The position numbers and the translations under genes are program-made. This document shows, piece by piece, positions 27,086-55,748 of a stretch of DNA of 64,000 nt (positions within the stretch are counted from its first letter, which is position 1; each line of letters begins with the position of its first letter). Source of the DNA: Candidatus Pyrohabitans jungbluthii (GTDB lineage: Archaea; Hydrothermarchaeota; Hydrothermarchaeia; Hydrothermarchaeales; BMS3B); NCBI GenBank assembly GCA_002010065.2, contig MTMD02000002.1:288001-352000 (forward strand), in the 5' to 3' direction. The notes below the pieces were generated by a model. The model ran no database searches and was not told the origin of the DNA. It saw nothing but the letters and a program-made list of their open reading frames with translations.

Positions 27086-27094
27086 GGTCTCTGC

Positions 27095-27769: not shown

Positions 27770-27840
27770 CCATCTTTATTTAACTCATCTCTTGATTTTC
27801 GCAACTTTTATATTATAATTAAAATTAAAATATTTAATTC

Positions 27841-28744: not shown

Positions 28745-28747
28745 GTG

Positions 28748-31559: not shown

Positions 31560-31568
31560 ATCACCACC

Positions 31569-32792: not shown

Positions 32793-33104
32793 CCCTCATC
32801 ACCTAAACGTTTCTATTTAAATTTCTCTAATATTTAAACAAATACAAATATAAAAACCTTTTTAGAAAAAAAATTTTATAATTTAAACCGAAGCAATTTT
32901 AATTTTATAAAAGCTTTATATTAGTAGATTCAATTATTTACTGGTTCAGATATTTTATTATATTTTATATACCGCTTTAGTATATAAGAATGAAAAATCT
33001 TAATTTCTACAATTATTGAAAAATAATTCTAAAAAGGTTTTTATTTTACCACCACACTAAAAAATTAAAATGTATTTTTAATTTAAAATGGGGGGAATGA
33101 TAGA
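32793..33104. promoter_or_regulatory. Very AT-rich divergent promoter region between moeA and the molybdoenzyme operon
   Basis: About 310 bp non-coding with several TTTATA/TATAAA boxes; individual sites not resolved. Confidence 0.55.
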
Positions 33105-35741: not shown

Positions 35742-35755
35742 GGGGGTGAGGGAAG

Positions 35756-36427: not shown

Positions 36428-36437
36428 GGTGATGAAG

Positions 36438-36833
36438 ATGAAGTTTAAGTTTCTGGTGTTCGCTTCCCTTGCTCTTCTCTTCCTCTTTGCAGCGTGCGCC
36501 CAGAAGCCAGAGGTCGAGGAGAAGGTGATTGAGAAAGAAGTGCCTATGAACCTCCCTGATACAGCGAAGAAGATAGCGGCTGGCGAAATTGAAGTTGGTG
36601 AGGAGTTTGGCATGGAGATTGGGCAGCGCTACCATACAATACACGCAGATACCCTCGGCTTAGCCTGCACCACCTGTCACGTTAAGAGCTATGCTGATGA
36701 CTACATCTACCAGAGGAAGTACAAGGTTCCTGTGAGAGGCGCCCCCGGACCTGTGGACAGAGGCGTCTGCCTGGGCTGTCACAAGGAGAATGGACCGGCG
36801 GCGACATCGCTCTATGGCACAGCCAGTGACTGA
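36438..36833 (+). CDS. Diheme c-type cytochrome lipoprotein
   Basis: Signal peptide with FAAC lipobox; CTTCH and CLGCH; start 36432 or 36438. Confidence 0.8.
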   Translation: MKFKFLVFASLALLFLFAACAQKPEVEEKVIEKEVPMNLPDTAKKIAAGEIEVGEEFGMEIGQRYHTIHADTLGLACTTCHVKSYADDYIYQRKYKVPVRGAPGPVDRGVCLGCHKENGPAATSLYGTASD

Positions 36834-36864
36834 CCTCTCTTTTCTTTCTTTTTGAGGTGCTAAT

Positions 36865-37560
36865 ATGGAGCAGCTTAATAAGCTTGCGGAGAACAGGAGC
36901 AGGATTTACGGCTTTCTCTGCGAGTTTTATAACGGGGTGCCCAGAGAGGAGTTCGTGAAGAAGCTTCTTAGTGAGGACTTCCTTAGGGAGTTGAAGAATC
37001 TAGCAACCCTCGCGGAGGGTGAACTCAGAGAGGGTGCAGAACTTTTAGAGCAATTCCTCAGGCTTAACTCTGAAAGAAACATAGAGGAGCTGACAGAGCA
37101 GCTTGCGGTTGAATTCACAAGGCTTTTCAGAGGCATAAAGCCAAAGTACAGTCCCCCACCACCGTATGAGTCTGTGTACAGAGACGAAGGCAGGGTGATG
37201 GGCGCTTCTACGCTTCAAGTGATGAACACTTACCTCGATGCTGGTTTTGCCCTGAACGAGGAATACGGAGGACCCCCGGATTATATAGGCACAGAGCTCA
37301 AGTTTCTTGCGCTTGCGAGCTACCGCGAGGCAGAGAGCTGGGGAAAGGGCGATAGAAGGGAAGCGGAGAGATTGCTTAGGGTACAGCAGCGCTTTATTGA
37401 AGAGCATGCTCTGGCATGGATTCCAAGGTTCTGCGATGTAATACTGCAGGAGGCTGAGAGCGAGTTTTATAAAGGTGTGGCGAAGCTTACTCGCGGGTTT
37501 CTGAGACTGGATGCAGAGCAGATAGCAGAGACCCTAAAGCTTGTGGAGGAAGAAGGATGA
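36865..37560 (+). CDS. TorD/DmsD-family redox enzyme maturation chaperone
   Basis: EFTRLF, PPYESVY, PPDYIGTELKFL, EH...WIPRF. Confidence 0.92.
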   Translation: MEQLNKLAENRSRIYGFLCEFYNGVPREEFVKKLLSEDFLRELKNLATLAEGELREGAELLEQFLRLNSERNIEELTEQLAVEFTRLFRGIKPKYSPPPPYESVYRDEGRVMGASTLQVMNTYLDAGFALNEEYGGPPDYIGTELKFLALASYREAESWGKGDRREAERLLRVQQRFIEEHALAWIPRFCDVILQEAESEFYKGVAKLTRGFLRLDAEQIAETLKLVEEEG

Positions 37561-42364: not shown

Positions 42365-43015
42365 TTATAATCTCTCCGTCTCCAGTCTCAACAACAGTCT
42401 TTCCACTATTGCCACACCTTCGCTGGTTAGCTGATACTGTCCTGCCCTGTTTTTACTCACTATTCCCGCCTCGCTGAGAACGCGAAGATGAAAGCTCAGT
42501 TTTGATGGGTCGTCCATCTCTATGCTCCTGGCAACCTCAGAAAACCTCCTCGCGCCTGCGTGAAGGAGGTAGAGAGCTATCTTCTTGCGTATCGGGTTTG
42601 AAAGCGCCTTGATTACAGCATCATTAAGCCTCGCCTCAACTTTGCGCTCTAACCTCGCCTCTTCTAAGGTTTTCTTGACGATACTCACCAGCTCGCCTAC
42701 ATTGAAGGGCTTTACAAGAAAGTCACTCGCTCCGAGCTTCATCGCCTCCACCACGTCAGCTATAGAGGGAAAGGCGCTGATTATTATCACCTTGGTCTCC
42801 GGTGAAATCCTCTTTATCTCATCCAGTGCTTCTAGGCCACGGATATCTGGAAGCACCAGGTCGAGGAGCACCAGGTCAGGTTGATTTTCCGTCAGCCTGG
42901 CAATCCCATCGGCGGCGCTCTCCGCGGTCAACACCTCAAAGCCATACCTGCGCAGTGCCTTTTCCAGCACGCTTGTAGTGTGCCTATCGTCATCCACAAT
43001 AAGTATGGTGCTCAT
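42365..43015 (-). CDS. Response regulator: REC plus ArsR-like winged helix
   Basis: IVDDD, DLVLPD, KPF; LSNPIRKKI...LSFHLRVLSEAGIV. Confidence 0.88.
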   Translation of the reverse strand: MSTILIVDDDRHTTSVLEKALRRYGFEVLTAESAADGIARLTENQPDLVLLDLVLPDIRGLEALDEIKRISPETKVIIISAFPSIADVVEAMKLGASDFLVKPFNVGELVSIVKKTLEEARLERKVEARLNDAVIKALSNPIRKKIALYLLHAGARRFSEVARSIEMDDPSKLSFHLRVLSEAGIVSKNRAGQYQLTSEGVAIVERLLLRLETERL

Positions 43016-43284
43016 ATCCCCTTTCCAGTCTTTTCCTTTATTTCATCCAGAATCTGGGCGATTGATTTATTCTCTGTGGATATGCCCAGATTTTCCGCGA
43101 TTTCCGTAAACTCCCTCTTATACACGCTCAGCTCTCCTGTCAGATCCCTCTCCAGCTCTTCCGCTGCTCTTCGATACTCTGCCACTGCCTTGCCCATACT
43201 CCTTGCCAGGTCTGGAAGCTTCTCAGGCCCAAAGAAGAGGAGGGCGAGAAGCGCTATGACAGCCACTTCTCCAGAGCCAATCAT
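43012..43284 (-). CDS. TatA/B-family subunit
   Basis: [25 protein letters not shown]. Confidence 0.88.
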
Positions 43285-43581: not shown

Positions 43582-44574
43582 ATGAGCGGAAGGAAAACAT
43601 TGAGATGGGTGGCAATACTTCTGCTGGTTCTCCTCGCAGCATACGTCTCAGGCAAAAATAGCGGGGACATGCCTGAAGTTGAGTTAGAGAAGTCTCATTA
43701 CTACTATGATGTGCTAGTGCATGGGGGTTACCTGTACGCCACCTCCCCCTGGGGCTTGGAGGTGTTCTCTATTGACGGGGGAAAAATTTCCCTCACAGGT
43801 GGTTATGAAACCAAGGGTGAGGCTCAGACGCTTGCTCTCTCCAAGGAAAGACTCTACCTCAGCGATGCCACAGGCAGGCTATATGTGTTCGATGTAAGCA
43901 CGCCCGCACGACCGCGTTTGATAGCTGAGCTAGAGCTGGACAAAATCGCCCAGAGGATTGTAATTTCTGGAGATAGGGCATATCTAGCGTGTGTCTCTTC
44001 TGGGCTGGTAATTCTGGACCTTCAGAACCTTGAAGAGGTTGGATTCTACAAGCCCAAAAACTACAGCTATCCTAAGGGAATATGCCTCCAAGATGGAAAG
44101 CTGTACATCGCAGACTTCACCATGAGGCTTTACGTCGCAGACGTGGTGGACGACTCCCTAATTTTTCTGGCCTCCCACCCAACCAGCAGCGTGGCCCACG
44201 ACGTTCTCGCTTGGGAGAGCTTTGTCTACGTTGCAAGCTCCGACGGGGGCGTGGACGTATTTAAGGTCTCTGGAAAAGAGCTGGAATTGGTACAGAACCA
44301 TCCTCTCCCCGGCTTTGCTCTTCGCCTGGCCAGGTATGGAAATTACCTCCTGGTTACCCTCGCCGATGAAGGTGTGGCTTTGCTCGAGATACAGAAGGAC
44401 GGCAGGCTTGAGCTTGTTGCACAATACGACACCCCTGGCAACGCGTACGGCATAGCTCTTGCCAATGGCTACGCATATGTGGCGGACTATGACGGAGGCA
44501 TAGTGGTGTTTGACCTCTCGCAGCTTCCGGAGCTTGTGCCAGTGGATTTCGCTAGGCCAGAGGTGAGCCCATGA
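43582..44574 (+). CDS. Exported LVIVD-repeat beta-propeller protein
   Basis: N-terminal signal/TM; repeated YxYVA..GL.I.D units; YDTPGNAYGI. Confidence 0.8.
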   Translation: MSGRKTLRWVAILLLVLLAAYVSGKNSGDMPEVELEKSHYYYDVLVHGGYLYATSPWGLEVFSIDGGKISLTGGYETKGEAQTLALSKERLYLSDATGRLYVFDVSTPARPRLIAELELDKIAQRIVISGDRAYLACVSSGLVILDLQNLEEVGFYKPKNYSYPKGICLQDGKLYIADFTMRLYVADVVDDSLIFLASHPTSSVAHDVLAWESFVYVASSDGGVDVFKVSGKELELVQNHPLPGFALRLARYGNYLLVTLADEGVALLEIQKDGRLELVAQYDTPGNAYGIALANGYAYVADYDGGIVVFDLSQLPELVPVDFARPEVSP

Positions 44575-46028
44575 AAGCAAGCGTTAGCACCAAGATGATG
44601 CTCGCCATAGGCTTAATCGTATTTCTCTCCGTAGAGGGCATCTTCTACTACATGAGCGAAAGCCACGAGAGGAGCATGATGGAGCAGCTCCGCCAGCAGG
44701 CGAAGAGCATCGCTGATCAAATACTCCTGATAAGGCTTTGGGCGGCGGAGCATAGAGAGCGCGTTGCGCCTGTGCCCGCGGAGCTCACCTACGAGCTCTC
44801 AGAACTTTCAAATGAACTGTACGACTACAAGATTCAGCTTGTAACCCTAAGACCCAGAGACCCCGAAAACTATCCCTCTGATAATTTTGAGAGAAGGGTG
44901 ATTCAGGAGTTTATACAGGGAAAGAGCAAGGAAGAGTATGCGATAAATGGCGAGTTTTACGAGTATGCTGTACCTCTCTATGTAGAAGAACCCTGCCTTA
45001 AATGCCACATTGACCAGGGCTATCGCGTGGGCGACCTGCGCGGCGCACTGGTGGTAGAGATACCAGTTAGCGAGGTGATGGCATCTCTCGCAAAAACCAG
45101 GAAGGAACTTATTGTCTATGGATTTGTGATTTCTCTCGGCATTATGCTGGCGATTCTGGGTATTATGAGGATAGTGGTCATAAAGCCTTTGAACAAGGTT
45201 AAGGAAGCCGCGATGAAGCTAGCGAAGCGCGACTATTCTGCTCGCGTTGAGGTGAGCAACGACGATGAATTGGGCGAATTAGCGAGGGTTTTCAACAGCA
45301 TGGTGGAGGAGCTCAAGAACAAAGAGGCGCAGGTGATTCAAAGCGAGAAGATGGCGACCGTTGGTAAGCTCGCCGCTGGAATAGCGCATCAGATAAACAA
45401 CCCCCTCGCCAATATAATACTCTACTCCCAGATTCACCGTGAAGAGGTGGACGATGAGGAGACAAAAAAGGTGCTGGAGATAATTGAAGAGGAAGCTTCT
45501 CTCGCCTCAAAGGTTGTACAAGGCCTTCTGGACTTCTCCAGGTATCGGGAATTCAAGCGCGAGGCTGTGCAGATTAACGAGGTTATAAGAAAAATGTTAA
45601 ATATACTTAAACCTCAACTACAGTACAAGAACATTAAGCTGGAACTAAACCTCGACGAGAACTTGCCGGAGATTCAGGGCGATTCAGCAAAACTTCTCGA
45701 CGCCTTCATAAACATTGCCACAAATGCGATAGATGCCATGAAGGAAGGTGGAAGGCTGAGTATACGCACAGGTAAAAGCGATGGAAAAGTGGTGGTGGAA
45801 ATCGCCGACACCGGCATGGGCATACCTGAGGAGCATCTCAGCAAGATATTTGACCCCTTCTTCACCACCAAGGAGGTGGGCAAGGGCACGGGCCTAGGAC
45901 TTTATATTACTTATAGTATAATTAATAAGCATGGTGGCGAGATAGAGGTGGAGAGCAAGGTCGGAAAGGGTACAAAATTTACTATATATCTACCAGGTGA
46001 GGTGAATGCAGGAAATACTTATAGTTGA
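44571..46028 (+). CDS. Sensor histidine kinase with extracytoplasmic c-type heme (DUF3365-like) domain and HAMP
   Basis: [16 protein letters not shown]...[11 protein letters not shown]; [10 protein letters not shown]; GTGLGL. Confidence 0.9.
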
Positions 46029-46659
46029 GGACGACCCCAAACTTAGAGAGGGGCTTAGAATACTCCTGGAAAAGAAGGGGTACTCGCCCAAGATCGCCGA
46101 GGATGGGGTAAAGGCAATAAATATGATTAAAAAGCAGAAATTTGACCTGGTAATCACTGATCTCGTGATGCCAGGCGCTGATGGCATGGAAGTGCTGAGG
46201 AATGTTAAGAAGTACTCCCCCCTCACCAAGGTGATAATAATCACCGCCTTTGGTACCGTCGATAGTGCCGTGCGCGCGATGAAGATGGGGGCGAGCGACT
46301 ATATACTAAAACCCTTTAAGGTGGAAGAGATAAGAAACAAGATTCTGCGTCTGCTGGAAGAGACCCGCATAGAGGAGGAAAGCAGGGAGAAGATGGAGAC
46401 GCAGGAAACCGGCAAGGACGTGCTCAAGTCTCTCTCAAACCCCATAAGGCGCAGGATAATGGAGTACCTCCATGCCAAGGGTAAGGCGAGGTTCACGGAT
46501 ATAATGAACTACCTTGGTATAGATGAGCCAGCTAAACTCGGCTTTCACCTGCGGGTGCTGAAGCAGGCCGGGCTAATAGCGCAGGATGAAAACCGCCACT
46601 ACTATATCTCCGAGGCTGGAAAGCGCGCTTTCATGACACTGCTTTCCCTGGAAGGGTAG
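46006..46659 (+). CDS. Response regulator: REC plus ArsR-like winged helix
   Basis: IVEDD, DLVMPGADG, KPF; LSNPIRRRI...LGFHLRVLKQAGLI. Confidence 0.88.
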   Translation: MQEILIVEDDPKLREGLRILLEKKGYSPKIAEDGVKAINMIKKQKFDLVITDLVMPGADGMEVLRNVKKYSPLTKVIIITAFGTVDSAVRAMKMGASDYILKPFKVEEIRNKILRLLEETRIEEESREKMETQETGKDVLKSLSNPIRRRIMEYLHAKGKARFTDIMNYLGIDEPAKLGFHLRVLKQAGLIAQDENRHYYISEAGKRAFMTLLSLEG

Positions 46660-46765: not shown

Positions 46766-46831
46766 TTTTTAAAAAAAAGATTTTATCATTTTAAAATTTA
46801 GTGAATATCAATGCGAAGCGGAGGTGAAAAT

Positions 46832-49291
46832 ATGGAAATAAGCATGAGCAGGCGCGAGTTTATAAAAGCCTCAGCAGCAACTGCGGCGATGCTTGCCGCT
46901 GGGATGAGTGCCCCAGCGATGGCAGCGCAGGGTGATGGCGAGATAAAGTTTGGCCGCGCTCAGTGTAGATTCTGCGGTACAGGGTGCACAGTACTCGTGG
47001 GCGTGCGCAACGGTAAAGTGGTTGCCGTCAAGGGTGATGCCAACTCGCCCATAAACTTCGGCAGGCTGTGCATGAAGGGCTACTCCCTGCCTCACATAAT
47101 GTACGGAGGCGGCGGCAAAGAGCGCCTGACCAAGCCAATGATCAGACAGCCCGACGGTAGCTTCAAGGAGGTAAGCTGGGACGAAGCTCTGGAGCTGATC
47201 GCAGATACCTTTGCGAAGTACATCAAGGAGTACGGCCCAGACAGCGTTGCCTGGTACGGCTCAGGGCAGAACAACACTCAAGAAGCGTACGCTGCCAACA
47301 AGCTGTTTAAGGGCATAATTGGCACGGCTAACGTTGAAGGTAACCCCAGGCTGTGTATGGCTTCTGCGGTAGGAGGGTACCTCAACACCTTTGGCGCAGA
47401 TGAGCCCGCTGGGAGCTATGACGACATAGACTATGCGGACACCTTCTTCATAATAGGCTCAAACATGGCGGAGCAGCATCCAATGCTCTTCCGCAGGGTT
47501 ATAGACAGGAAGAGCGCCTACCCGGACAGGGTGCGCGTCATTGTAGCAGACCCGCGCACAACACCTACTGCGAGGTACGCTGACCTTCACCTCAAATTCA
47601 AGCCGGGTACAGACATGTACCTGCTCAACGCAATGGCTTATGTTATAATAGAGGAGGACTTAGTTGACTATGAGCACCTGAAGTACTGCACCTTTGCCAA
47701 GGGGCTGGGCAAGGGCGAGGCTCTCGATTTTGATGCCTTCAGGGAGTTTCTGAAGGATTACGCGCCGGAGAAAGTGGAGGAGATAACCGGTGTTCCCGCG
47801 GAGGACATACGCTTAGCTGCGAAGTGGTTCGGGCGCAGAGGTTACTCAACCCTCAGTCTGTGGACCATGGGCTTGAACCAGCGCACTCAGGGCGTGGAGC
47901 TCAACTGCCAGGTGCACAACCTGCATCTGCTTACAGGTAAGATAGGCAAGCCCGGATGCGATTCTCTGAGCTTAACAGGGCAGCCCAACGCCTGCGGTGG
48001 CACTCGAGAGCAGGGCGGCTTAACTCACATCCTGCCGGGTCACCGTAAGGTTGCGAACGAGCAGCACCGCAAGGAGGTTGCTGAGGTCTGGGGCGTGCCC
48101 GTTGAGCAGATGCCCACGAAGCCCACTGGGCCAGCGGTCAACATGTTCATGCGCCTGGAGAAGGGGGAGATCAAGGCGATATGGATAAACACCACAAACC
48201 CGGCGCAGAGTTTGCCCAACGCAGACCGTTACCGTGAGGCAATGCGCAAGGCGTTTACTGTGGTGAGCGACATCTATCCCACGCGAACCACAGAAGTGGC
48301 GACGGTGATTCTGCCCAGCGCCATGTGGGTAGAGAAAGAAGGCATAATGGGTCAAACCGATAGAAGAAGCCAGTTCACGCCCAAGCTGGTTGACCCGCCA
48401 GGCGAGGCAAAGCCCGACTTCTGGCAGATTAACGAGGTCGCCAGACGCATCGCTGAAAAGCTTGGCAGAAAGACGAAGTTTAAAGTGAGAGACAGGAAGG
48501 AGCCAGTTAATGTCATCAAAGAAATAGAGGTCTATGGTCTGGGCTTCTACGATGACCCCAGGGTCCAGGAAGGAGAGATGACACCAGAGGAAGCTGCCTG
48601 GAACGAGTACAGAGTGCTCACAAAGGGTCGGGATGTTGACCTCTATGGCGCAACCTACGAGAAGCTCAAAGCCCACGCTGGCGGCGTACAGTGGCCATGC
48701 CCGAGCACAGAGTTTGACAACCGCGGCAGCAACAAGCGCTACATCTCCCGCGAGTATGCTATAAAGGTCTTCGGAACAGACAAGAAGAGGTATGCCACCG
48801 GCTACGTTACGCTCTACGACCAGCACCTGGAGGAGGAAGGCTACCCAGGACCAATAAACTACTACGGCAAGAAGGGCAAGGCGGTGATTCGCGCTCTAAT
48901 GCCAACTGTCGACTACGAGATGCCCGACAGCAGCTATCCCTTCGTGCTCAACACCGGCAGAGTTATCGAGCACTGGCACACTGGCACGATGACCATGCGT
49001 GTGCGCCTACTGCGTGAGCTTAATCCAGCGGCCTACGTGGAGATTCACCCAAGCGATGCTGAGAAGCTGGGCGTAAAGAGCGGTGAGAATGTGATGCTTA
49101 TCTCACCGCGCGGCAGCATTATACTCCCCGCCTGGGTAACAGAGCGCGCTCAGCCTGGCATGGTGTTCGTGCCCTGGTTCGACGAGACTAAGCTTATCAA
49201 CGACCTCACCGTGGACGTGCCCGAGAGCTGGTCAAAAGCGGCTGAGCCTGACTACAAGGTGTGCAAGATTAAGGTGGTCAAGGCCACCTAA
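46832..49291 (+). CDS. napA: Periplasmic-type nitrate reductase catalytic subunit
   Basis: SRREFIK Tat motif; CRFCGTGC...LCMKG; GSGQ; NPRLCMASAV; WTMGLNQ; SLTGQPNACG; GRVIEHWHTGTMT. Confidence 0.92.
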   Translation: MEISMSRREFIKASAATAAMLAAGMSAPAMAAQGDGEIKFGRAQCRFCGTGCTVLVGVRNGKVVAVKGDANSPINFGRLCMKGYSLPHIMYGGGGKERLTKPMIRQPDGSFKEVSWDEALELIADTFAKYIKEYGPDSVAWYGSGQNNTQEAYAANKLFKGIIGTANVEGNPRLCMASAVGGYLNTFGADEPAGSYDDIDYADTFFIIGSNMAEQHPMLFRRVIDRKSAYPDRVRVIVADPRTTPTARYADLHLKFKPGTDMYLLNAMAYVIIEEDLVDYEHLKYCTFAKGLGKGEALDFDAFREFLKDYAPEKVEEITGVPAEDIRLAAKWFGRRGYSTLSLWTMGLNQRTQGVELNCQVHNLHLLTGKIGKPGCDSLSLTGQPNACGGTREQGGLTHILPGHRKVANEQHRKEVAEVWGVPVEQMPTKPTGPAVNMFMRLEKGEIKAIWINTTNPAQSLPNADRYREAMRKAFTVVSDIYPTRTTEVATVILPSAMWVEKEGIMGQTDRRSQFTPKLVDPPGEAKPDFWQINEVARRIAEKLGRKTKFKVRDRKEPVNVIKEIEVYGLGFYDDPRVQEGEMTPEEAAWNEYRVLTKGRDVDLYGATYEKLKAHAGGVQWPCPSTEFDNRGSNKRYISREYAIKVFGTDKKRYATGYVTLYDQHLEEEGYPGPINYYGKKGKAVIRALMPTVDYEMPDSSYPFVLNTGRVIEHWHTGTMTMRVRLLRELNPAAYVEIHPSDAEKLGVKSGENVMLISPRGSIILPAWVTERAQPGMVFVPWFDETKLINDLTVDVPESWSKAAEPDYKVCKIKVVKAT

Positions 49292-49395
49292 AACCTTTTT
49301 TATTTTTAAAGCAGGTTTTGCTAAATTTTATTTTATAATTAGATTTATAAATTATTGGAGGGTTATACTTAAAATAAAAGTTTTTGGTGTTATAT

Positions 49396-49845
49396 ATGCG
49401 GCTTGCAGTAGTGCTTTTCCTGATAATGCTCATACTCGCAGGGTGTGTTGAGAAGGAAGAGGCAGTTGTAGCTACAGAGAAGAAACCTGCACCGCCGCTG
49501 GTTGAGGAAGCTCCCGAAGCCCCTGAAACCCAACTTCAGAAAGAAAAAGTTGAAAAAAAAGCTGGACTGACAATAGCCGATATTCTAAATAACCCAGCGG
49601 CATACGAAGGCAAGGAGGTAACACTGCGCGGCAGAGCTACGCCTGGCTTAGCCTTTGAATTTGTGGATGAGCAGCCCTATTTGCTGAGCGATGGTACGGG
49701 GGAGATATGGGTGATTACCCGGGCTATGATGCCTATGCAGGGGGCTGAAGTAACGGTGAGAGGCGAGGTGGTGGTACCCTACCAGATTAAGGGCCGCCAC
49801 TACGAGGTTGCGATCATTGAGATTGATAGGGAGGAAGAGTATTGA
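49396..49845 (+). CDS. OB-fold-like lipoprotein of unknown function
   Basis: LAGC lipobox; YEGKEVTLRG...LSDGTGEIWV. Confidence 0.65.
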   Translation: MRLAVVLFLIMLILAGCVEKEEAVVATEKKPAPPLVEEAPEAPETQLQKEKVEKKAGLTIADILNNPAAYEGKEVTLRGRATPGLAFEFVDEQPYLLSDGTGEIWVITRAMMPMQGAEVTVRGEVVVPYQIKGRHYEVAIIEIDREEEY

Positions 49846-50585
49846 GGCTGAGCAGGAGGAGCTTTATAAGGAGCTCTGCGCTGCTGTGGCTTGGCTTTTT
49901 CGGGTTTAAGATGAGAAGAGAGGTGCCTGTCATCCGTCCTCCAGGCGCGACGAGTGATTTTCTTGCACGCTGCATACGCTGCGGTAAGTGCGGCGAAGCC
50001 TGCCCCTATGACTCCATAAAGTTTTTCGACATAAGCGCGGGCGCAAACGTGGCAACGCCCTACATAGACCCCCTTGAGACGCCGTGCTATCTCTGCCTTA
50101 AGCGCACCAGCGAGGGCAAGGACGAGCCCCTCAGCGACTACCTTCTGTGTGGCGAAGCCTGTCCCACGGGCGCACTGAAGAAGATTAAGAACGACAGGGA
50201 TACGCTGCTTTCACTTCCCGATGAGCTGAAGATGGGCATTTCTGTGCTAAACCGCGATATTTGCCTAGCCTGGCAATACGATTCCTGCGGGGAGTGCTAC
50301 TACAACTGCCCTCTACGCGACGACGCCATGCTGGATTACCCGCCAAACGAGGTTATCACAGGTGCAGTAGGGATTCGCCCCTATGTTAATGAGAAGCACT
50401 GCGTGGGCTGCGGAATGTGCAACTACGTGTGCCCCGTGAATGAAAAGATAGCAAAGGCTACGGTAGAGCCTGGAAGGAAGCTTACATACTTCGAGGAGCG
50501 CTACGCTGCCATGGTGAGAAATGTTATAGGCAAAGCAGGACGCGAAGTAAAGCTCCCAGCGGTGCGTGTGGTTAAGAGGGTGTAG
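49842..50585 (+). CDS. napG: NapG/MauM ferredoxin-type protein
   Basis: SRRSFI; IRPPGA; CIRCGKCGEACP; PCYLC; CLAW..CGECYYNCP; CVGCGMCNYVCP. Confidence 0.88.
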   Translation: MRLSRRSFIRSSALLWLGFFGFKMRREVPVIRPPGATSDFLARCIRCGKCGEACPYDSIKFFDISAGANVATPYIDPLETPCYLCLKRTSEGKDEPLSDYLLCGEACPTGALKKIKNDRDTLLSLPDELKMGISVLNRDICLAWQYDSCGECYYNCPLRDDAMLDYPPNEVITGAVGIRPYVNEKHCVGCGMCNYVCPVNEKIAKATVEPGRKLTYFEERYAAMVRNVIGKAGREVKLPAVRVVKRV

Positions 50586-50586
50586 C

Positions 50587-51432
50587 ATGAAGGTAAAGGT
50601 GATAAGGCGGGTGTTTCAGCTTGCTGTGCTTGCCGTGCTCATCGCTGTGCCTATTTACACCCAGAACCCCATAGAGTGGGCGCCCTCGCGCATAGCTCTG
50701 GGAGAGCTTCCTCCCCCCAGGGTTTCTCAGGTGTGGGGTGACACCTGGAGCTTCAGCTTTTACGGCATAAACATAACCCATCCCCTCGCCGCTCTAGAAG
50801 CGATTCTCGCTGCAAAGGTGGTTTACCTCCCCCTTCTAATGGCAACGCTTCTCCCCCTGGCAATAACGCTGCTTCTGGGCAGGGTATTCTGCTCCTGGCT
50901 GTGCCCTGTTGGCTTTCTGCTGGAGCTGAATCAGAGGCTCAGGGGTTTCCTCAGGGAAAAAGGCATCGCAAAGGATGTAAAGCTGCGCGATTACCGATAC
51001 CACTTACTCGGCTTTACCTTAGCGCTTACCTTCTTCTTTGCCACGCCTGTGGTTTCCGCATTTGACCCGCCTCATGTGTTTGGAAGGGAGCTTTTCTATC
51101 TGTTCACTTACCATAGCGTAAGTTTAGGAGGCATAGCCCTGCTAATTGGAATCTTTGCATTCGAAACTCTCGCCTCTGAGCGCGCTTGGTGCCGCTCGTT
51201 CTGCCCAGCGGGAGGCCTTCTTTCTCTTCTCGGAGCGAAAAGGCTTATTAAAATACAGAAAAAAAAGGAGCGCTGCGTGCTCTGCGGGGAATGCAACATT
51301 GCATGCCCCTACAATCTGCGTCCGGTTGAGCTGGGCATAGATAAGGATTTTAATGATAAAACTTGCGATAACTGTGGGCTGTGCAGGGATGCATGCCCTG
51401 CTGGGGCCCTGTACTATACTATAAGGAGGTGA
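50587..51432 (+). CDS. napH: NapH membrane quinol dehydrogenase subunit
   Basis: GRVFCSWLCP, RAWCRSFCP, two C-terminal [4Fe-4S] motifs. Confidence 0.88.
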   Translation: MKVKVIRRVFQLAVLAVLIAVPIYTQNPIEWAPSRIALGELPPPRVSQVWGDTWSFSFYGINITHPLAALEAILAAKVVYLPLLMATLLPLAITLLLGRVFCSWLCPVGFLLELNQRLRGFLREKGIAKDVKLRDYRYHLLGFTLALTFFFATPVVSAFDPPHVFGRELFYLFTYHSVSLGGIALLIGIFAFETLASERAWCRSFCPAGGLLSLLGAKRLIKIQKKKERCVLCGECNIACPYNLRPVELGIDKDFNDKTCDNCGLCRDACPAGALYYTIRR

Positions 51433-51437
51433 AAGAG

Positions 51438-51674
51438 TTGCCAGTATCTGGAGCTGTTGTTGTGCCTGTGCCGGGCAAAGAGAAAGAGGTAGAGAAGAGT
51501 CTCAGAGCTCTGCCCGGCGTGGAGGTTAAAGGCAGGGGAAGCAAAGGTATCGCCGTTGTAATGGAGGGCGAGTCAACAAAGGAGCTGAAGAAGCTATCAG
51601 AGAAGATAGAGAAGTGGGACGACGTTGTGGACTTCCAGCTTGTGTACCTTAACGTGGAGGACGAGGTGGAGTGA
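51438..51674 (+). CDS. napD: NapD chaperone
   Basis: TTG start after GGAGGTGA; PVSGAVV...LPGVEV...IAVVME...LVY. Confidence 0.75.
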   Translation: MPVSGAVVVPVPGKEKEVEKSLRALPGVEVKGRGSKGIAVVMEGESTKELKKLSEKIEKWDDVVDFQLVYLNVEDEVE

Positions 51675-52783
51675 GCAAGCTAGGCTTTGTGGGTACGCCG
51701 TGTCAGATTCAGGGACTGAGAAAGGCCCAGGCTTTGGGTGACCAGCTTAAGCAGAACTGGGCAAATAGGGTAGGCTTTACTGTAGGTCTTTTCTGCATGG
51801 GCAACTGGAGCTACCCCTGTATCAAGGGTTACCTGGAGAAGCACGGGATTGAGCTTGAAAAGGTGAGGAAGGTCGAGATCTCTGGCTACGAGGTTGAGGT
51901 TTCGCTTAATGGCAGCAAGCTTGTGATACCCCTCGCTGGTTTGAGAAAGTACGTCAAGCTTGCGTGTAAACTCTGCTTGGATTTTGCCTCTGAGCTTGCC
52001 GACATAAGCGTGGGCAGTATTGGCTCACCCCGTGGGTGGAGCACAGTAATTGTGCGCTCTAAGCTGGGGGAGGAAGTGGTTACCCGAGCGGAGGCGGCGG
52101 GAGAGATTGAGACTCGCGAAGTTGATGAGGAACAGCTCGCGAAGCTCGCAGAGGTTGCCGGAAAGAAGATTGAAAGGAACACCAGGAGAATTCTAGGCAG
52201 GGCAAGACAGGGCATGTCCATACCCCACTTCAATACGAGGCTTGGCACAAGCCTTGAGGAACTCCTGCCCCTCGCCCAGGGCAAGGGCTTTACTGAGCTC
52301 TGGAATGAGATAGTAGCCACTGGGTTATGCGACGCCTGCGGCGCATGCAGCGCTGCGTGCGAGTATATAGAGATGAGAAACGGCCTGCCGAGACTTAAAA
52401 AGCGCTGCCCACAGGATTGCAACAGGTGCTACCTCGCGTGCACTCGCACCGCACTGCCTGTTAGAGCGCTGGAAAAGAATCTCGACCTTGGAGATACTTA
52501 CAGGCAGTACCTGGGCAAGTACTGGCGCGTGTTGGCGGTGCGCGCCACCAGCGAGGAGCTACTCGCCCGCGCACAGAACGGCGGCGCTGTTACAGCACTG
52601 CTTAAATTTTCTTTAACTAGAGGTTTCATAGATGGGGTGGTGCTCACCTGCAGAGGCGAAGCGTGGGAACCTCGTGCAGTTCTCGCAAGAAGCGGGGCTG
52701 ATATTTCCAACTGTGCCGGTACAGTATACGCTGCCTCAACACCTCTTCCGCTGTTTAGGCGTATTAAACTTATATCAACCTAA
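51671..52783 (+). CDS. FrhB/FdhB/FpoF-family F420-interacting subunit with permuted domain order
   Basis: VGTPCQ, GLFCMGN, CKLCLDF...ADISVGSIG..GW precede CDACGACSAAC and AQNGGAVTALL. Confidence 0.8.
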   Translation: MSKLGFVGTPCQIQGLRKAQALGDQLKQNWANRVGFTVGLFCMGNWSYPCIKGYLEKHGIELEKVRKVEISGYEVEVSLNGSKLVIPLAGLRKYVKLACKLCLDFASELADISVGSIGSPRGWSTVIVRSKLGEEVVTRAEAAGEIETREVDEEQLAKLAEVAGKKIERNTRRILGRARQGMSIPHFNTRLGTSLEELLPLAQGKGFTELWNEIVATGLCDACGACSAACEYIEMRNGLPRLKKRCPQDCNRCYLACTRTALPVRALEKNLDLGDTYRQYLGKYWRVLAVRATSEELLARAQNGGAVTALLKFSLTRGFIDGVVLTCRGEAWEPRAVLARSGADISNCAGTVYAASTPLPLFRRIKLIST

Positions 52784-52872: not shown

Positions 52873-54357
52873 ATGAGAGCAAAATATCTCTTAATTTTCG
52901 CAATAGCTGCAGCAATGGTGCTCAGCACAGTTAATGCACAGGGATTTAAAGAACCTGGTGCACCATGCCTGAGCTGCCACGATACAGTGACTCCTGGCAT
53001 AGTGAAGCAGTGGGAGGAGAGCAAGCACAGCAAAGTCGGGATAAAGTGCTACGTGTGCCACCTCGCTAAAGAGGACGACCCCTCTGGCTTTGAACACATG
53101 GGGTATAGAGTTACCGCCGTTGTGTCGCCACGCTACTGCGAGAGCTGCCATCCCAAGCAGGTAGCCGAGTTTTCAAAGAGCAAGCACGCATGGACAGCGT
53201 TCATAGGACCACTGAAGCCCTGGTACAAAGAGATGGTCAAGCAGGGCAAGGACCCACTGAAAGTGGAGACCGCTTTGGAAGTCAACCCCAGGGACTTCAT
53301 AAGAGACAAGCTCACGCCGCTCTATCCAGACAGCGGTGCCCTGAAGCGCGCGGGCTTGCTGGACTCAAAGGACTACAACCACGAGAACCAGGTGCTGGGC
53401 TGCCTTGAGTGTCACGGCTCCTACATAATAGCCAAGGACGGCAAGATCCTGGATGGCTGGCCCAACAACGGTATAGGCAGGGTTAACCCAGATGGTAGCC
53501 TTGGCTCCTGCACCGCCTGCCACACGAGGCACAGGTTCAGCATAGCAGAGGCGCGCAAACCCGAGACCTGCGGTCAGTGCCACCTCGGCCCAGACCACCC
53601 ACAGATAGAGATATACGAGGAGAGCAAGCACGGCAACATCTATGCGAGCAGCGGTGAGGAGTGGAACTGGGATGTTCCTCCAGGACAGTGGGGTCCGGAG
53701 GATATAGCTGCGCCCACCTGTGCAACCTGCCACATGTCTGGCTTTGGCGGCGTGGTTGAGAGCACCCACGACGTAGGTGCGAGGCTCTACTGGGAGCTCC
53801 AGCCCAAGAAGTCAGTGCCCCAGTGGGACGACCCGAGCTTAGTGCCTCTGGGCAAGCAGAAGCCTGACGAGGAGCAGGCGAAGAAGGGCAGAGCAGAGAT
53901 GAAGAAGGTTTGCAGGGTGTGCCACGCCAGCGACTGGGTTGACGGCTACTTCGAGAGCTTCGACAAGGTAGTCAACGACTACAACAAGGTCTATGACTAC
54001 ACCAAGAAGCTTCTTGACACAGCCTACGAGGAGGGCTTGATAGACAAGTCCAACCCCATCGACGAGATTCCAGAGATAATGTACTACTACATCTGGCACC
54101 ACGACGGTCGCAGGTGGAGGATGGGCGCCAGCATGATGGCACCCGACTGGACCCATTGGAACGGTGCAGTGGACGCGCTACTGGACAAGCTCAACATGAT
54201 GGAAGAATGGATAAAGATGCAGCGAGAGAAGAAGCAGCTCGAGGAGCGCGTTGCTGCACTTGAGCAGAAGAAGGGCGTGTGCGGTCCCACAGCGATTGCT
54301 GCGCTTGCACTGGTGCCAATCGCCGGCTATGCAGTGCTGAGGAGAAGGAAGCTCTAA
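52873..54357 (+). CDS. Octaheme HAO-family cytochrome c with CGP-CTERM-like anchor
   Basis: Eight CxxCH motifs; GPDHPQIEIYEESKHG; APTCATCHM; DWTHWNG; GVCGP-TM-RRRK. Confidence 0.88.
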   Translation: MRAKYLLIFAIAAAMVLSTVNAQGFKEPGAPCLSCHDTVTPGIVKQWEESKHSKVGIKCYVCHLAKEDDPSGFEHMGYRVTAVVSPRYCESCHPKQVAEFSKSKHAWTAFIGPLKPWYKEMVKQGKDPLKVETALEVNPRDFIRDKLTPLYPDSGALKRAGLLDSKDYNHENQVLGCLECHGSYIIAKDGKILDGWPNNGIGRVNPDGSLGSCTACHTRHRFSIAEARKPETCGQCHLGPDHPQIEIYEESKHGNIYASSGEEWNWDVPPGQWGPEDIAAPTCATCHMSGFGGVVESTHDVGARLYWELQPKKSVPQWDDPSLVPLGKQKPDEEQAKKGRAEMKKVCRVCHASDWVDGYFESFDKVVNDYNKVYDYTKKLLDTAYEEGLIDKSNPIDEIPEIMYYYIWHHDGRRWRMGASMMAPDWTHWNGAVDALLDKLNMMEEWIKMQREKKQLEERVAALEQKKGVCGPTAIAALALVPIAGYAVLRRRKL

Positions 54358-54359
54358 GC

Positions 54360-54382
54360 TTCCTGTTCTTTTTCCTTTTTTT
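54360..54382 (+). terminator. Oligo-T terminator-like tract
   Basis: ttcctgttctttttccttttttt directly after the octaheme gene stop. Confidence 0.5.
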
Positions 54383-54432
54383 GAACATGTTCGCACAAAA
54401 TTATTTTATAAGTTTGGGGGTTATTTATTACT

Positions 54433-54552
54433 ATGAAGAAGTGTGAAAACTGTCAGCGGAGCGAGGAGGAAGTCCCTGTCCTCAAGTACTATCATAAGGG
54501 CGATAAGCACTACATTTGCTCGCGCTGCCTGCCAATGCTCATTCATGGTTAG
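54433..54552 (+). CDS. 39-aa CxxC/CxxC metal-binding microprotein (not in ORF track)
   Basis: MKKCENCQRSEEEVPVLKYYHKGDKHYICSRCLPMLIHG; starts about 25 nt after a TTTTATAA box. Confidence 0.65.
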   Translation: MKKCENCQRSEEEVPVLKYYHKGDKHYICSRCLPMLIHG

Positions 54553-54557
54553 GTACT

Positions 54558-55748
54558 ATGATAACACTGATACTGCGCTTTCTTGCAGCGGCGCTTGTGT
54601 ATTTTATTGTAGCGCTACTTCTGGGTATAGCTCAGCTTTTTAATCTTTCTTTCCTTACCCCTGCTCACGTCCACCTTGCCTTTGTGGGCTTTGTTTGCGG
54701 TGTTATCATCGCTACAATGTACCAGCAGGTGCCCACGCTGACCGGAGCGGAGCTTCACAGTAAGCGAGCAGCGCGGGCGAGCTTCTGGTTTTTCAACGCT
54801 GGCATAGTGGTCTTCTCCGTGAGCTACCCAAAGTTCAGACTCCTCGCATCTGCAGGCGCTTTGCTATTGCTCATCGCCTTCTATCTTTTCACCTACAACG
54901 TCATAGCAACTATTTCCAACAGGAAGGGCGAGAGCTACGTATTCAAGTTCTACTCCGCCTCGAGCATTTTCCTGAGCATCGCCTCAACGCTGGGATTTCT
55001 GTTTACAGTCAACCCCTCACTAATAAGCTATCGCCCCACCCATGTTCACCTCGCTTTAGTGGGCGGAGTGGCGCTCATTATCGTGGGCGCAATGTCCTGG
55101 ATGCTCCCCATGGTTGTGGTTAAGGAGATTTACAGCAAACGCTGGATGGACTACGTGTTCTATGCTATTGTGGTCGCATCTCTCGGCTTAGCTTTTGGTC
55201 TCGCACTTTCCAAAACTCTTGCCCTGCTTTCTGGCTTCATTTTGCTGGCTGCTGTCCTGCTCTTCATCTGTGACATGGTGAAGAGCTACACCGCTCCGAC
55301 CAAAACGGCGTTCAAATCCACGCCTGTGGAGGCCAAGTTCTTCTTAGCTGCCCTAGCCTACCTTGCGCTTACACTGCTGCTTGGCTTAGCTCTGGTGCTG
55401 TTCCCCCTAGGCAGAGGCTTTGTGATTGCCCATGCCCATCTCGCCGCCCTTGGTTTTGTGGTTCAGACGGTAATTGGCGGGCTTTACCATGTGATACCTA
55501 CACTTGCATGGACGAAGCTCATAGCCAGCGAGAAGGAACGAGCGCCCTCCTCATTTAAAGAGCTTTTCTCAGCCGAGCGCTCGCGATGGGTTTTCATAGC
55601 TTTTAACGTGGGCACCCTCCTCCTCGCCTCTGGCTTTGCTTTCGCAATCAAAGGCGTAACCTTTTTTGGCGCACTTCTTGTTGCCTTCGCATGCATCGCC
55701 TTCGCAGCTGAGATGCTGGGTGTAATAAGGAGAGCTGGCGCTATTTGA
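54558..55748 (+). CDS. Polytopic membrane protein, NnrS/heme-copper-oxidase-like
   Basis: About 12 TM segments in three repeats, each with HxHL (HVHLAFVG, HVHLALVG, HAHLAALG). Confidence 0.65.
   Translation: MITLILRFLAAALVYFIVALLLGIAQLFNLSFLTPAHVHLAFVGFVCGVIIATMYQQVPTLTGAELHSKRAARASFWFFNAGIVVFSVSYPKFRLLASAGALLLLIAFYLFTYNVIATISNRKGESYVFKFYSASSIFLSIASTLGFLFTVNPSLISYRPTHVHLALVGGVALIIVGAMSWMLPMVVVKEIYSKRWMDYVFYAIVVASLGLAFGLALSKTLALLSGFILLAAVLLFICDMVKSYTAPTKTAFKSTPVEAKFFLAALAYLALTLLLGLALVLFPLGRGFVIAHAHLAALGFVVQTVIGGLYHVIPTLAWTKLIASEKERAPSSFKELFSAERSRWVFIAFNVGTLLLASGFAFAIKGVTFFGALLVAFACIAFAAEMLGVIRRAGAI

Follow-up and report, generated by a model that had tools for sequence, protein, structure and literature searches.

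The gene at 51671..52783 (+ strand) of the window, the whole 64,000-nucleotide stretch of DNA analysed here, encodes a circularly permuted FrhB-family flavo-iron-sulfur protein, P0001, as established from its open reading frame, its Pfam domain order, an AlphaFold2 model and dN/dS. The gene lies inside a nap cluster, and the same permuted order recurs in other genomes beside other enzymes. For P0001 itself we lean, a little beyond even weight, toward the reading of a cytoplasmic F420H2-oxidising module that would take the place of NapF and feed NapH, NapG and NapA.

P0001 has 370 residues, starts with GTG and is encoded in an intact frame. The FrhB_FdhB_C domain comes first, at residues 2-153 (51674..52129, +); it contains cysteines 11, 42, 99 and 102 and was located by alignments and by Pfam (E 7.1e-43; score 146.5 bits, with the cut-off at 23.3; positions 2-149 covered in a profile of 150). 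It is followed by a new connector at residues 154-205 (52130..52285, +), delimited by the AlphaFold2 model and by the alignment gap to 8riu_B. The connector lies between the two stretches that match this chain, bridges what used to be the C-terminus and the N-terminus, and is mostly helical in the model, with helices at 153-179, 185-189 and 195-202. A ferredoxin-type 2x[4Fe-4S] insert at about residues 206-270 (52286..52480, +), recognised from cysteine positions and matches to relatives, places the motifs C220/223/226/230 and C246/250/253/257 between both Pfam domains; the insert matches the N-terminal ferredoxin part of canonical relatives as well as FrhG positions 165-222 (NCBIfam). The FrhB_FdhB_N domain, with the motifs QNGGAVT and GTVY, comes last at residues 288-358 (52532..52744, +; Pfam E 6.1e-18; score 65.2 bits, with the cut-off at 22; positions 2-72 covered in a profile of 78). 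Both Pfam matches are far beyond chance and exceed the gathering scores of the FrhB/FdhB superfamily (PF04422 and PF04432), with FrhB_FdhB_C ahead of FrhB_FdhB_N and the usual N-before-C order absent.

The exchange of the two halves was also seen by pairwise alignment. Against the canonical 8riu_B, which also has 370 residues, query residues 208-354 align to chain positions 10-159 and query residues 4-175 to chain positions 178-347, and the halves are swapped against 6qgr_B and 3zfs_C too. Pfam coordinates and the swapped 8riu_B alignment thus agree with the preliminary description, which had stated that the usual order of ferredoxin, FrhB_N and FrhB_C is rearranged; the canonical order, named there as a refutation, is contradicted by the Pfam mapping of the C domain to residues 2-153 and the N domain to 288-358. 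The motifs that it had placed near the start and the end were all found in the translation, GFVGTPCQ at residues 5-12, AQNGGAVTALL at 301-311 and AGTVY at 349-353. Relative to the canonical ferredoxin-N-C module, P0001 is confirmed as an exact circular permutant. Cysteines 11, 42, 99 and 102 each align to a cysteine of 8riu_B and 6qgr_B and are either invariant across 72 permuted sequences or kept in at least 90% of them, and we take them to be the ligands of the FrhB-domain [4Fe-4S] cluster; Q302 and G304 are invariant in all 72. A search of P0001 for a hydrophobic segment or signal found none, and the protein is predicted to be cytoplasmic.

The AlphaFold2 model of P0001 has a mean pLDDT of 94.8 and a pTM of 0.94. 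Its best structural matches in Foldseek are FrhB (4ci0_C, 9r52_B, 6qii_B), 8riu_B, 8rja_E and Fsr, at probability 1.00 and an rmsd of 1.5-2.8 A. These matches span only 175-197 columns, about half of P0001 (TMq 0.41-0.47), as would be expected of an order-dependent aligner faced with a permutant. To the extent that the confidence of the model can be relied on, the two halves would pack as they do in FrhB. The gene is under purifying selection, with dN/dS values of 0.135, 0.166, 0.217 and 0.245 against its orthologues in loci L001-L004.

The permutation is widespread. Among the best 80 of 576 relatives, a sample that makes all locus counts lower bounds, the permuted order was found in at least 71 loci; it was also found in 13 of the 120 cluster representatives listed, the other 107 being canonical, and in 13 of the best 150 representatives from a library of 1.84 billion proteins. 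P0001 aligns colinearly, at 29-83% identity, with the other 11 members of A1 and the other 71 of A2. In at least 42 of the 71 loci, all from Methanobacteriaceae, the permuted gene adjoins pieces of glutamate synthase in split clusters, with all three pieces present in 36; these proteins share 28-35% identity with P0001 over the full length and fall into one clan with it. In at least seven loci, from Hydrothermarchaeota, it lies directly upstream of a four-subunit 2-oxoacid:ferredoxin oxidoreductase (POR). The same permutation had been proposed for a search next to nap genes, and it was found there in at least four of the 71 permuted loci, those of the closest relatives, L001-L004 (53-83% identity), which have the same napA-x-napG-napH-napD cluster; five nap-linked loci are known, the window's included, from a single archaeal lineage. 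The permutation predates the nap association and defines an older and wider family. The view of the permutation as a local event in the nap operon had to be given up, since the same order occurs in at least 71 loci, mostly beside glutamate synthase or 2-oxoacid oxidoreductase.

In a 95-row tree, the nap-linked proteins form one clade of seven rows with a support of 100, and 43 of the 45 permuted rows, P0001 included, fall into one clan with an SH-aLRT of 98. The two permuted rows P0132 and P0156 stand among canonical rows with supports of 88 and 86. In a subset of 46 rows (LG+G4), a constrained tree keeping all 20 permuted rows together beats the free tree with a p-AU of 0.925, a weaker test in that the subset was picked after the first tree had been seen. 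A single origin of the permutation is not rejected by these trees. A second, independent permutation, represented by P0132 and P0156, was considered and not adopted, the constrained 46-row tree having had the higher likelihood. Intermediates of the trimmed tandem duplication that the preliminary description had suggested, or a fusion with NapH, were sought among proteins of 649-2000 residues and none was found, an absence that is weak evidence; the sole protein found in this size range joins a canonical FrhB to an RnfD/NqrB-type domain. More than two matched stretches occurred in none of the best 150 representatives.

The nap cluster was delineated with Pfam and NCBIfam profiles. It is preceded by a histidine kinase with a Tll0287-like sensor domain and a response regulator with an ArsR-type HTH (44571..46659, +; Pfam), probably the regulator pair of the cluster; judged by size and place, ORFs of the same sizes occur at the same position in L002 and L004. 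A NapA-type molybdopterin nitrate reductase with a Tat signal follows at 46811..49291 (+), identified by Pfam domains, TAT_signal and NCBIfam (NapA E 2.7e-202, 674 bits, under the cut-off of 904). Next comes a small exported protein at 49384..49845 (+), recognised from its sequence by a lipoprotein-like leader; it has no CXXCH or haem motif, and in L001-L004 a homologue occupies the corresponding position (E 1e-51 to 1e-89). NapG, an exported poly-ferredoxin with a twin-arginine leader (SRRSF), is encoded at 49842..50585 (+; NCBIfam NapG E 3e-33, below cut-off), and NapH at 50566..51432 (+; NCBIfam NapH E 3.8e-39, below cut-off), its likely start being the ATG at 50587. NapH has four membrane segments as well as two CX3CP motifs, and carries a 2x[4Fe-4S] domain at its C-terminus. 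The CX3CP loops and the C-terminal domain of NapH are rich in lysine and arginine (9 and 15 K+R) and would therefore lie inside, so that the C-terminal 2x[4Fe-4S] domain is predicted to be cytoplasmic. The NapD chaperone is encoded at 51381..51674 (+; Pfam NapD, 53.8 bits with the cut-off at 28). With NapA, NapG, NapH and NapD identified, the placement of the permuted gene inside a nap operon is upheld. Neither NapB, NapC nor NapF was found in the cluster with the Pfam and NCBIfam profiles, and an electron route to NapA is represented by the presence of NapG and NapH. Since the NCBIfam scores of NapA, NapG and NapH all fall below the curated cut-offs, nitrate is a likely substrate, not a certain one.

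The junction of napD with the permuted gene reads ...GAGGTGGAGTGAGC, in which the four letters GTGA contain both the GTG start and the TGA stop. The overlap of four bases with napD reported earlier is thereby verified, the napD ORF ending at 51674. A GGAGG stands 11 bases upstream of the GTG start, and the junction sequence is identical in all four orthologous loci (L001-L004). Translational coupling of the permuted gene to napD is shown by this arrangement.

A complex of NapH (alignment A3) with P0001 (alignment A2) was predicted with a score of 0.75, the best of three controls scoring 0.00; of 157 solved complexes 116 attain this mark, as do 2 of 215 mismatched pairs, which is a rough guide only, own alignments having been used, and the score may partly recall solved complexes of a ferredoxin domain on FrhB (FrhG-FrhB, Fsr, 8RIU) and carries no information on affinity. 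At least 100% of contacts were shared between runs, with a partner pLDDT of at least 82. In the predicted interface, NapH residues 230-238, 245-252 and 271-273 meet P0001 residues 46-57, 93-98, 211-220 and 237-239, the NapH side being the region of the first [4Fe-4S] motif of its C-terminal domain. P0001 may thus dock on the cytoplasmic [4Fe-4S] domain of NapH. The topology fits such docking: the CX3CP loops and the C-terminal domain of NapH would lie inside, NapG has a twin-arginine leader, and P0001 is without signal or membrane segment. A precedent for a cytoplasmic iron-sulfur partner of NapH is found in an excerpt of PMC5928378, according to which NapF depends on NapH's first cysteine motif.

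In the mechanism proposed here, the permuted family would be a plug-in redox module, serving glutamate synthase in Methanobacteriaceae and 2-oxoacid:ferredoxin oxidoreductase in Hydrothermarchaeota, and a duplicate of it would have been recruited to the NapA-x-NapG-NapH-NapD cluster without NapB, NapC and NapF. Hydride would pass from F420H2 to the FAD of the permuted module, and single electrons would then pass to its own [4Fe-4S] cluster and to the two clusters of the ferredoxin insert. From the insert, the electrons would enter the cytoplasmic 2x[4Fe-4S] domain of NapH and move on to the exported NapG and NapA, probably through menaquinone in the membrane part of NapH, with nitrate reduced outside. 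Judged by its sequence, P0001 would bind FAD and exchange hydride with F420, and use of F420 is favoured because the closest solved relatives are proven by assay and the FrhB-cluster cysteines and both ferredoxin motifs are kept. Both the direction and the route of electrons to Nap are drawn here as we infer them. Bacterial NapGH is described as a menaquinol dehydrogenase in the available text of PMC5928378, and so Nap may have no need of a cytoplasmic donor; moreover, passing electrons from a donor in the cytoplasm to an acceptor outside would not in itself conserve energy. The earlier suggestion of a link between F420H2 and nitrate respiration is consistent with the synteny in four of four loci, the napD overlap, the F420-module relatives and the NapH docking, from which we infer the link itself. 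A wider proposal, of a deazaflavin-driven nitrate reductase with a permuted F420H2 oxidase seated on NapH, and of a module that also makes POR and glutamate synthase F420-dependent, is put forward tentatively, at rather less than even weight.

The same docking would fit equally well if P0001 were a NapF-like maturation helper and not a respiratory component, binding NapH and NapA before export and using F420H2 as reductant for insertion of iron-sulfur or molybdenum cofactor or for the cysteines of NapH. This reading, which we regard as unlikely, draws on the position of the permuted gene, translationally coupled behind the gene for the NapA chaperone in a cluster from which napF is absent, and on accounts of NapF as a cytoplasmic poly-[4Fe-4S] protein with NapA interaction and NapH-dependent attachment (PMC10609526 and PMC5928378, each in part). 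However, P0001 has no NapF similarity, the napF model missing it yet weakly matching NapG; its paralogues stand as apparent redox subunits, not chaperones, beside the catalytic enzymes glutamate synthase and POR; and the solved proteins nearest to it serve as catalytic electron modules.

Downstream of the permuted gene lie an octahaem HAO-family cytochrome c with eight CXXCH motifs (52873-54357, +), whose best PDB match is 4qo5_A (E 1.7e-56), and a COX1-like membrane protein with 11 hydrophobic segments (54516-55748, +). The pair follows at gaps of 89 and 158 bases in the window and is syntenic in L002-L004. This neighbourhood, together with the nearness of the cytochrome to 4qo5_A and HAO-family proteins, would allow P0001 to serve the pair, or both branches, in nitrite or hydroxylamine reduction. 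We hold this improbable: the four-base overlap is with napD, whereas the cytochrome gene is 89 bases off; the cytochrome has a signal peptide and would lie outside the membrane; and the NapH docking prediction passed its controls.

A similarly low probability is given to P0001 as a flavo-iron-sulfur relay without F420, working with ferredoxin or another carrier like plant HCAR. The FrhB family does have non-F420 members, and HCAR (5dqr_C) is among the structural matches, but at E 3.3e-4 and 24% identity over 157 columns, while FrhB, 8RIU, 8RJA and Fsr are stronger structurally (E 1e-11 to 6e-9, 30-40% identity) and HCAR is absent from the 15 PDB sequence matches. An assembly chimera or a decaying, non-folding remnant, the other refutation named in advance, can practically be dismissed: nothing was found in its support, and it is contradicted by the permuted order in 71 of 80 independent genome loci (the best 80 of 576 relatives), including those of the cultured strains Methanobacterium oryzae DSM 11106 and Methanobrevibacter curvatus DSM 11111, by dN/dS of 0.13-0.25, and by a pLDDT of 94.8 over an intact frame.

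F420-oxidoreductase modules that turn the ferredoxin-dependent CODH and Fwd into F420-dependent enzymes were shown only recently, as reported in the available part of bioRxiv 10.1101/2024.01.23.576903. The present analysis adds that a circularly permuted version of the module is widespread beside three different enzyme systems, and that one copy is hard-wired, via the overlap with the napD stop, into a Nap operon lacking NapB, NapC and NapF. Among the matches listed, no description of circular permutation in the FrhB family was found in the literature, nor, by title or abstract, any F420-linked Nap. If the F420H2-oxidising mechanism is true, a Nap-type nitrate reductase would for the first time be tied to the F420 pool, and the cytoplasmic iron-sulfur domain of NapH would gain a testable function. 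Under the wider proposal of a deazaflavin-driven nitrate reductase, the cytoplasmic clusters of NapH/NosR-type membrane proteins, long unexplained, would be an entry port for cytoplasmic reductant, and the permuted module would be a general plug-in by which enzymes dependent on ferredoxin or quinol are switched to F420. The permutation also offers a natural test case for the tolerance of a two-domain flavoprotein to re-threading. Source databases label such permuted genes 'F420 hydrogenase beta subunit', an annotation that is corrected here. The genome paper on Hydrothermarchaeota (PMC6775978) reports mtd, mer and frh genes, which speaks for F420 use, and, in the portion available, counts its FrhB-like genes as hydrogenase evidence.

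Comparison with known systems places P0001 apart from FrhB proper and from FpoF/FqoF. No hydrogenase genes (frhA/frhG) were found within the nap cluster by Pfam and NCBIfam. FrhB proper (TIGR03289 / PRK09325) was rejected as an identity for P0001, with 183.1 against 331.5 and 217.1 against 269 bits, each in two stretches. FpoF/FqoF is the F420H2 input subunit of membrane-bound F420H2 dehydrogenase; it belongs to the FrhB family, contains a ferredoxin part, sits peripherally in the cytoplasm and passes F420H2 electrons to the iron-sulfur subunits of a membrane complex. P0001 would resemble it in working mode but is not FpoF/FqoF (95.9 bits for NF040616, cut-off 475, and 98.1 bits for NF006808, cut-off 444); the order of FpoF is canonical, and P0001 has nap neighbours instead of adjacent fpo/fqo genes. 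NapF is like P0001 a cytoplasmic iron-sulfur protein from a nap cluster, and its membrane attachment, which requires NapH (PMC5928378, in part), parallels the predicted NapH docking of P0001; its role is thought to be NapA maturation, according to an excerpt of PMC10609526. NapF is, however, without a flavin or F420 domain and has no sequence relationship to P0001. The identification of P0001 as NapF was rejected, with no napF match at E <=0.001 and two ferredoxin-type motifs against the four tetra-cysteine motifs of NapF.

[quoted passage not shown] It is the FGltS(II)-alpha of Susanti and Mukhopadhyay (2012); Kaster et al. (2011) call it 'subunit 4' (MTH193 / MTBMA_c06440). MTH193 probably belongs to the same permuted family, as matched by the descriptions in these papers and by the context of the loci, and its neighbours and presumed partner differ from those of P0001. 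The available text of these papers (PMC3448663, PMC3087415) treats the protein as a homologue of FdhB or FrhB whose sequence 'departs significantly'; neither 'permut' nor 'rearrang' occurs in PMC3448663, and the F420-dependent glutamate synthase of Methanothermobacter is said in the available part of PMC3087415 to remain to be proven.

The closest solved sequences in the PDB are 8riu_B (E 1.9e-53) and 8rja_E (E 2.1e-45), followed by FrhB and Fsr; for Fsr, the accessible text of PMC10229431 describes the F420 site only as a positively charged cleft. The two closest are the CODH/ACDS zeta subunit (8RIU chain B) and FwdI (8RJA chain E) of Candidatus Ethanoperedens thermophilum, which have the same three parts as P0001 and for which F420 reduction was measured (bioRxiv 10.1101/2024.01.23.576903, in part). 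They are also alike in logic, as far as the available part of that preprint describes them, each being a stand-alone module on an enzyme that without it would rely on ferredoxin or some other carrier. The order of parts is ferredoxin-N-C in Ethanoperedens and C-ferredoxin-N in P0001. The Ethanoperedens partners are soluble C1 enzymes and the reaction is F420 reduction, whereas the partner of P0001 would be a Nap membrane protein and the reaction F420H2 oxidation.

The permuted gene was found, as in the preliminary description, to be an ORF of the plus strand at window 51671-52783, with a GTG start and 370 aa. In Pfam, FrhB_FdhB_C (E 7.1e-43) covers aa 2-153 of the protein with positions 2-149 of its 150-position profile and comes ahead of FrhB_FdhB_N (E 6.1e-18), which covers aa 288-358 with positions 2-72 of 78, with two ferredoxin-type motifs in between (C220/223/226/230 and C246/250/253/257), and these coordinates bear out the domain order claimed earlier. 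The NCBIfam FrhB and FpoF models matched the protein in two stretches apiece, all under the cut-offs. Position 51674 is the last base of the napD ORF, the junction reads GAGGTGGAGTGAGC with GGAGG upstream, and the claimed 4-bp overlap is the GTGA common to the GTG start of the permuted gene and the TGA stop of napD, a junction conserved across the four orthologous nap-linked loci (L001-L004). The protein is predicted to fold: an AlphaFold2 model from an alignment of 72 permuted sequences had a mean pLDDT of 94.8 and a pTM of 0.94, with no segment of pLDDT <50. Foldseek against the PDB returned FrhB (4ci0_C, 9r52_B, 6qii_B), the canonical F420-reductase modules 8riu_B and 8rja_E, and Fsr, each with a probability of 1.00 and an rmsd of 1.5-2.8 A; the matches span only 175-197 columns, with TMq 0.41-0.47, as would be expected of an order-dependent aligner given a permutant. 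The dN/dS of the gene against four orthologues (0.135, 0.166, 0.217 and 0.245) indicates selection at the sequence level.

The query was split into its FrhB_FdhB_C (C), ferredoxin insert (F) and FrhB_FdhB_N (N) parts, and each was compared with the 120 proteins that an initial homologue search had listed; the order among these was C-F-N in 13, the canonical F-N-C in 98 and N-C in 9. The 13 (P0002-P0012, P0053 and P0073) range from 100% down to 29% identity. Canonical relatives equal the permuted protein in overall length (~345-385 aa), as does the best solved-structure match, 8riu_B, with 370 aa. Query 208-354 aligned to 8riu_B 10-159 and query 4-175 to 8riu_B 178-347, so the halves are swapped; the earlier claim of an FrhB-type domain rearrangement is upheld, and these comparisons identify the protein as a true circular permutant. 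Based on the part-wise orders and the swapped alignment, the new ends of the chain lie in the short N-C linker, and the former ends are bridged by ~30-50 residues (aa 154-205).

A search of 1.84 billion library representatives gave 2773 matches at E <=0.001, and the best 150 of these divide into 13 aligned in a single full-length stretch (permuted) and 137 in two stretches. A genome scan gave 576 relatives, of which the best 80 loci were retained. The permuted gene occurs in 71 of these 80 (69 closed C-F-N ORFs, L073 with C and F alone detected, and L001, cut at a contig end) and canonical genes only in 8; L068, with no closed ORF called, is omitted from the counts. The hosts of the best 80 are Hydrothermarchaeota MAGs, which are the closest relatives, and many Methanobacteriaceae, among them Methanobacterium oryzae DSM 11106, Methanobrevibacter curvatus DSM 11111 and MAGs assigned to Methanosphaera stadtmanae. 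The suggested search for the permutation beside nap genes found it in four of the 71 loci (L001-L004, 83-53% identity), with napA, napG, napH and napD upstream. Seven others, from Hydrothermarchaeota (L005, L006, L007, L009, L010, L012 and L014; 35-41% identity), carry, immediately downstream, four genes for a 2-oxoacid:ferredoxin oxidoreductase (POR; gamma, delta, alpha and beta subunits), as at L005:1170-5271, L007:7956-12061 and L014:7998-12084, and L011 has two of the four subunits nearby. Since this second paralogue stands directly upstream of the POR genes, and by analogy with F420-reducing CODH and Fwd, the POR is a candidate F420-coupled enzyme. The paralogue often overlaps the first POR gene. 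At L011:3108-6633, a canonical FrhB-like gene and a permuted one share a strand, and the 1.3 kb that separates them contains an arginase-family gene. In 42 of the 71 loci, all Methanobacteriaceae, the permuted gene is flanked by parts of a split glutamate synthase (amidotransferase, GXGXG/FwdC-like and FMN domains, all three in 36 loci) and sits between the GXGXG and FMN domain genes (L027:6348-10571, L043:4071-8296, L066:1966-6188 and 39 further loci); this gene is probably the 'subunit 4' or FGltS(II)-alpha of the literature. Another 17 of the 71, mostly Methanobrevibacter and several with short flanks, lack nap, POR and glutamate-synthase neighbours; 16 such loci (L013, L016, L018-L023, L025, L029, L030, L034, L035, L039, L048, L062), again mostly Methanobrevibacter, have permuted genes that form a separate subclade. 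The precomputed Pfam list of a further homologue, P0393 (723 aa), gives FrhB N and C domains with PF03116 (RnfD/NqrB family), which would make it another FrhB-type module joined to a membrane redox complex.

A tree of 95 rows was built from 45 permuted and 50 canonical sequences, the latter a subset (every fourth canonical library representative, ten first-search homologues and five from loci), with the C part and the ferredoxin+N part aligned separately and then joined. One clan holds 43 of the 45 permuted rows (SH-aLRT 98) and contains a Methanobacteriaceae group (18 rows, support 100) and a Hydrothermarchaeota-type group (22 rows, support 96), the latter consisting of a nap clade (7 rows, support 100), a POR clade (14 rows, support 94) and P0011. 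The nap-linked copy looks like a duplicate of a Hydrothermarchaeota module that was recruited to nap. There is a slight hint that P0005 and P0008 of the nap clade are near nap genes too, as their longest contigs (207060 and 165632) equal in length those of the NapH relatives P0276 and P0278. The permuted rows P0132 and P0156 were placed among canonical rows with weak support, which points to an artefact of the tree or to the permutation having arisen a second time, independently. Their break point is that of the other permuted proteins. In a 46-row subset, the best tree that kept all 20 permuted rows together beat the free quick tree by 41 log-likelihood units (p-AU 0.925), and therefore a single origin of the permutation is not rejected.

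The nap cluster of the window runs napA, a small exported protein gene, napG, napH, napD and the permuted gene. NapA (826 aa) has a Tat signal, and the NapA model, its best NCBIfam match, gave 674 bits where the cut-off is 904; the small exported protein (49384-49845, 153 aa, lipoprotein-like leader …LILAGC, no haem motif) keeps its position between napA and napG in L001-L004 (E 1e-51 to 1e-89), and NapG has a twin-arginine leader, SRRSF. In NapH, two CX3CP motifs and a C-terminal 2x[4Fe-4S] domain accompany four membrane segments; with K+R counts of 9 in the loop bearing the first CX3CP motif and 15 in the C-terminal domain, both are assigned to the positive, cytoplasmic side, which matches the bacterial topology. 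The closest NapH relatives outside Hydrothermarchaeota (P0279-P0340) are 46-59% identical, and the few named ones come from bacterial MAGs (Nitrospirota, Desulfobacterota), so the cluster may have moved between domains. Directly before napA, at 43582-46659, lie genes for an LVIVD-repeat beta-propeller, a histidine kinase whose sensor domain is Tll0287-like and a response regulator with an ArsR-type HTH; L002 and L004 have ORFs of matching size at the kinase and regulator positions. TatA is at 43012-43284. Besides MoaE, MobB, MoeA and ModABC, a molybdenum island (26280-37560) encodes a second molybdopterin oxidoreductase of 878 aa, PhsA/ArrA-like, that is accompanied by a TorD-type chaperone and an Fe-S subunit with four clusters. 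Redox and methyltransferase genes occupy 292-2331, 6784-8479 and 15571-20356; the window has an HdrA2-like gene with MvhD/VhuD-like and HdrBC/TfrB-like genes beside form III RuBisCO, a second HdrD/TfrB-like fusion, and an MtaA/CmuA-type methyltransferase with its own corrinoid protein.

A complex of NapH (281 aa from ATG 50587; alignment of 75) with the permuted protein (alignment of 72) was predicted with a score of 0.75 (runs 0.74, 0.76 and 0.75) against 0.00 for the best of three controls, contact agreement of at least 100% and partner pLDDT of at least 82. Of 157 solved complexes, 116 reached this mark, as did 2 of 215 mismatched pairs, counts that are rough for custom alignments such as these. 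The predicted interface joins NapH 230-238, 245-252 and 271-273 to FrhB_C 46-57 and 93-98, next to C42/C99/C102, and to ferredoxin insert 211-220 and 237-239; the invariant cysteines of the NapH clusters are 230/233/236/240 and 260/263/266/270. Complexes with a ferredoxin domain on FrhB are already solved (FrhG-FrhB, Fsr, 8RIU), and the docking result may therefore partly reflect likeness to them. No signal or membrane segment was found in the sequence of the permuted protein. Its most likely function is to oxidise F420H2 in the cytoplasm and so feed the NapH-NapG-NapA chain. Electrons would enter at it from F420H2 and pass through NapH and NapG to NapA, crossing the membrane by menaquinone in NapH or another route. 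Such an outward-only path would conserve no energy by itself, which makes redox balancing or a quinone loop plausible. One rival is that the protein serves the downstream pair of octahaem cytochrome c and COX1-like protein (52873-55748), which is syntenic in L002-L004, the contig of L001 stopping within the permuted gene. The cytochrome, with 8 CXXCH motifs, a signal peptide and a C-terminal anchor, best matches 4qo5_A in the PDB (E 1.7e-56) and then HAO-family proteins; its 11-segment membrane neighbour matches the COX1 profile in the C-terminal part only, and the pair may form a branch of the same pathway that acts on nitrite/hydroxylamine or NO.

The permuted family is already annotated in databases and one of its branches is named. 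Kaster et al. 2011 describe MTH193/MTBMA_c06440 as an F420-dependent glutamate synthase, 'to be proven', with an FrhB-like 'subunit 4' (PMC3087415); the name FGltS(II)-alpha is from Susanti and Mukhopadhyay 2012, whose text contains neither 'permut' nor 'rearrang' (PMC3448663). Carr et al. 2019 report NapADGH in Hydrothermarchaeota and count FrhB-like genes among the hydrogenase subunits (PMC6775978), and Kato et al. 2019 only mention Nap and Nor (PMC6759336). The literature searches turned up no account of the permutation, of the three contexts in which it occurs or of an F420-linked Nap; the permuted order of the Methanobacteriaceae 'subunit 4'/FGltS(II)-alpha seems to have gone undescribed. 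Among known systems, 8RIU (zeta subunit of the Ethanoperedens CODH) and 8RJA (FwdI) are, according to the Ethanoperedens preprint, F420-reductase modules with a ferredoxin domain (1-83), by which they are anchored, and a reductase domain (84-349), and their F420 reduction was measured (bioRxiv 10.1101/2024.01.23.576903, with frhB homologues listed in Fig. S15); in Fsr, electrons pass from FAD to cluster 1 of the oxidase domain and on to two ferredoxin clusters (PMC10229431). A second rival would have the permuted protein use a carrier other than F420. NapB, NapC and NapF are absent from the window's nap cluster, and a third rival gives the protein a NapF-like maturation role; as the F420H2-oxidising input module, the permuted protein would itself fill the place that NapF holds in bacteria.
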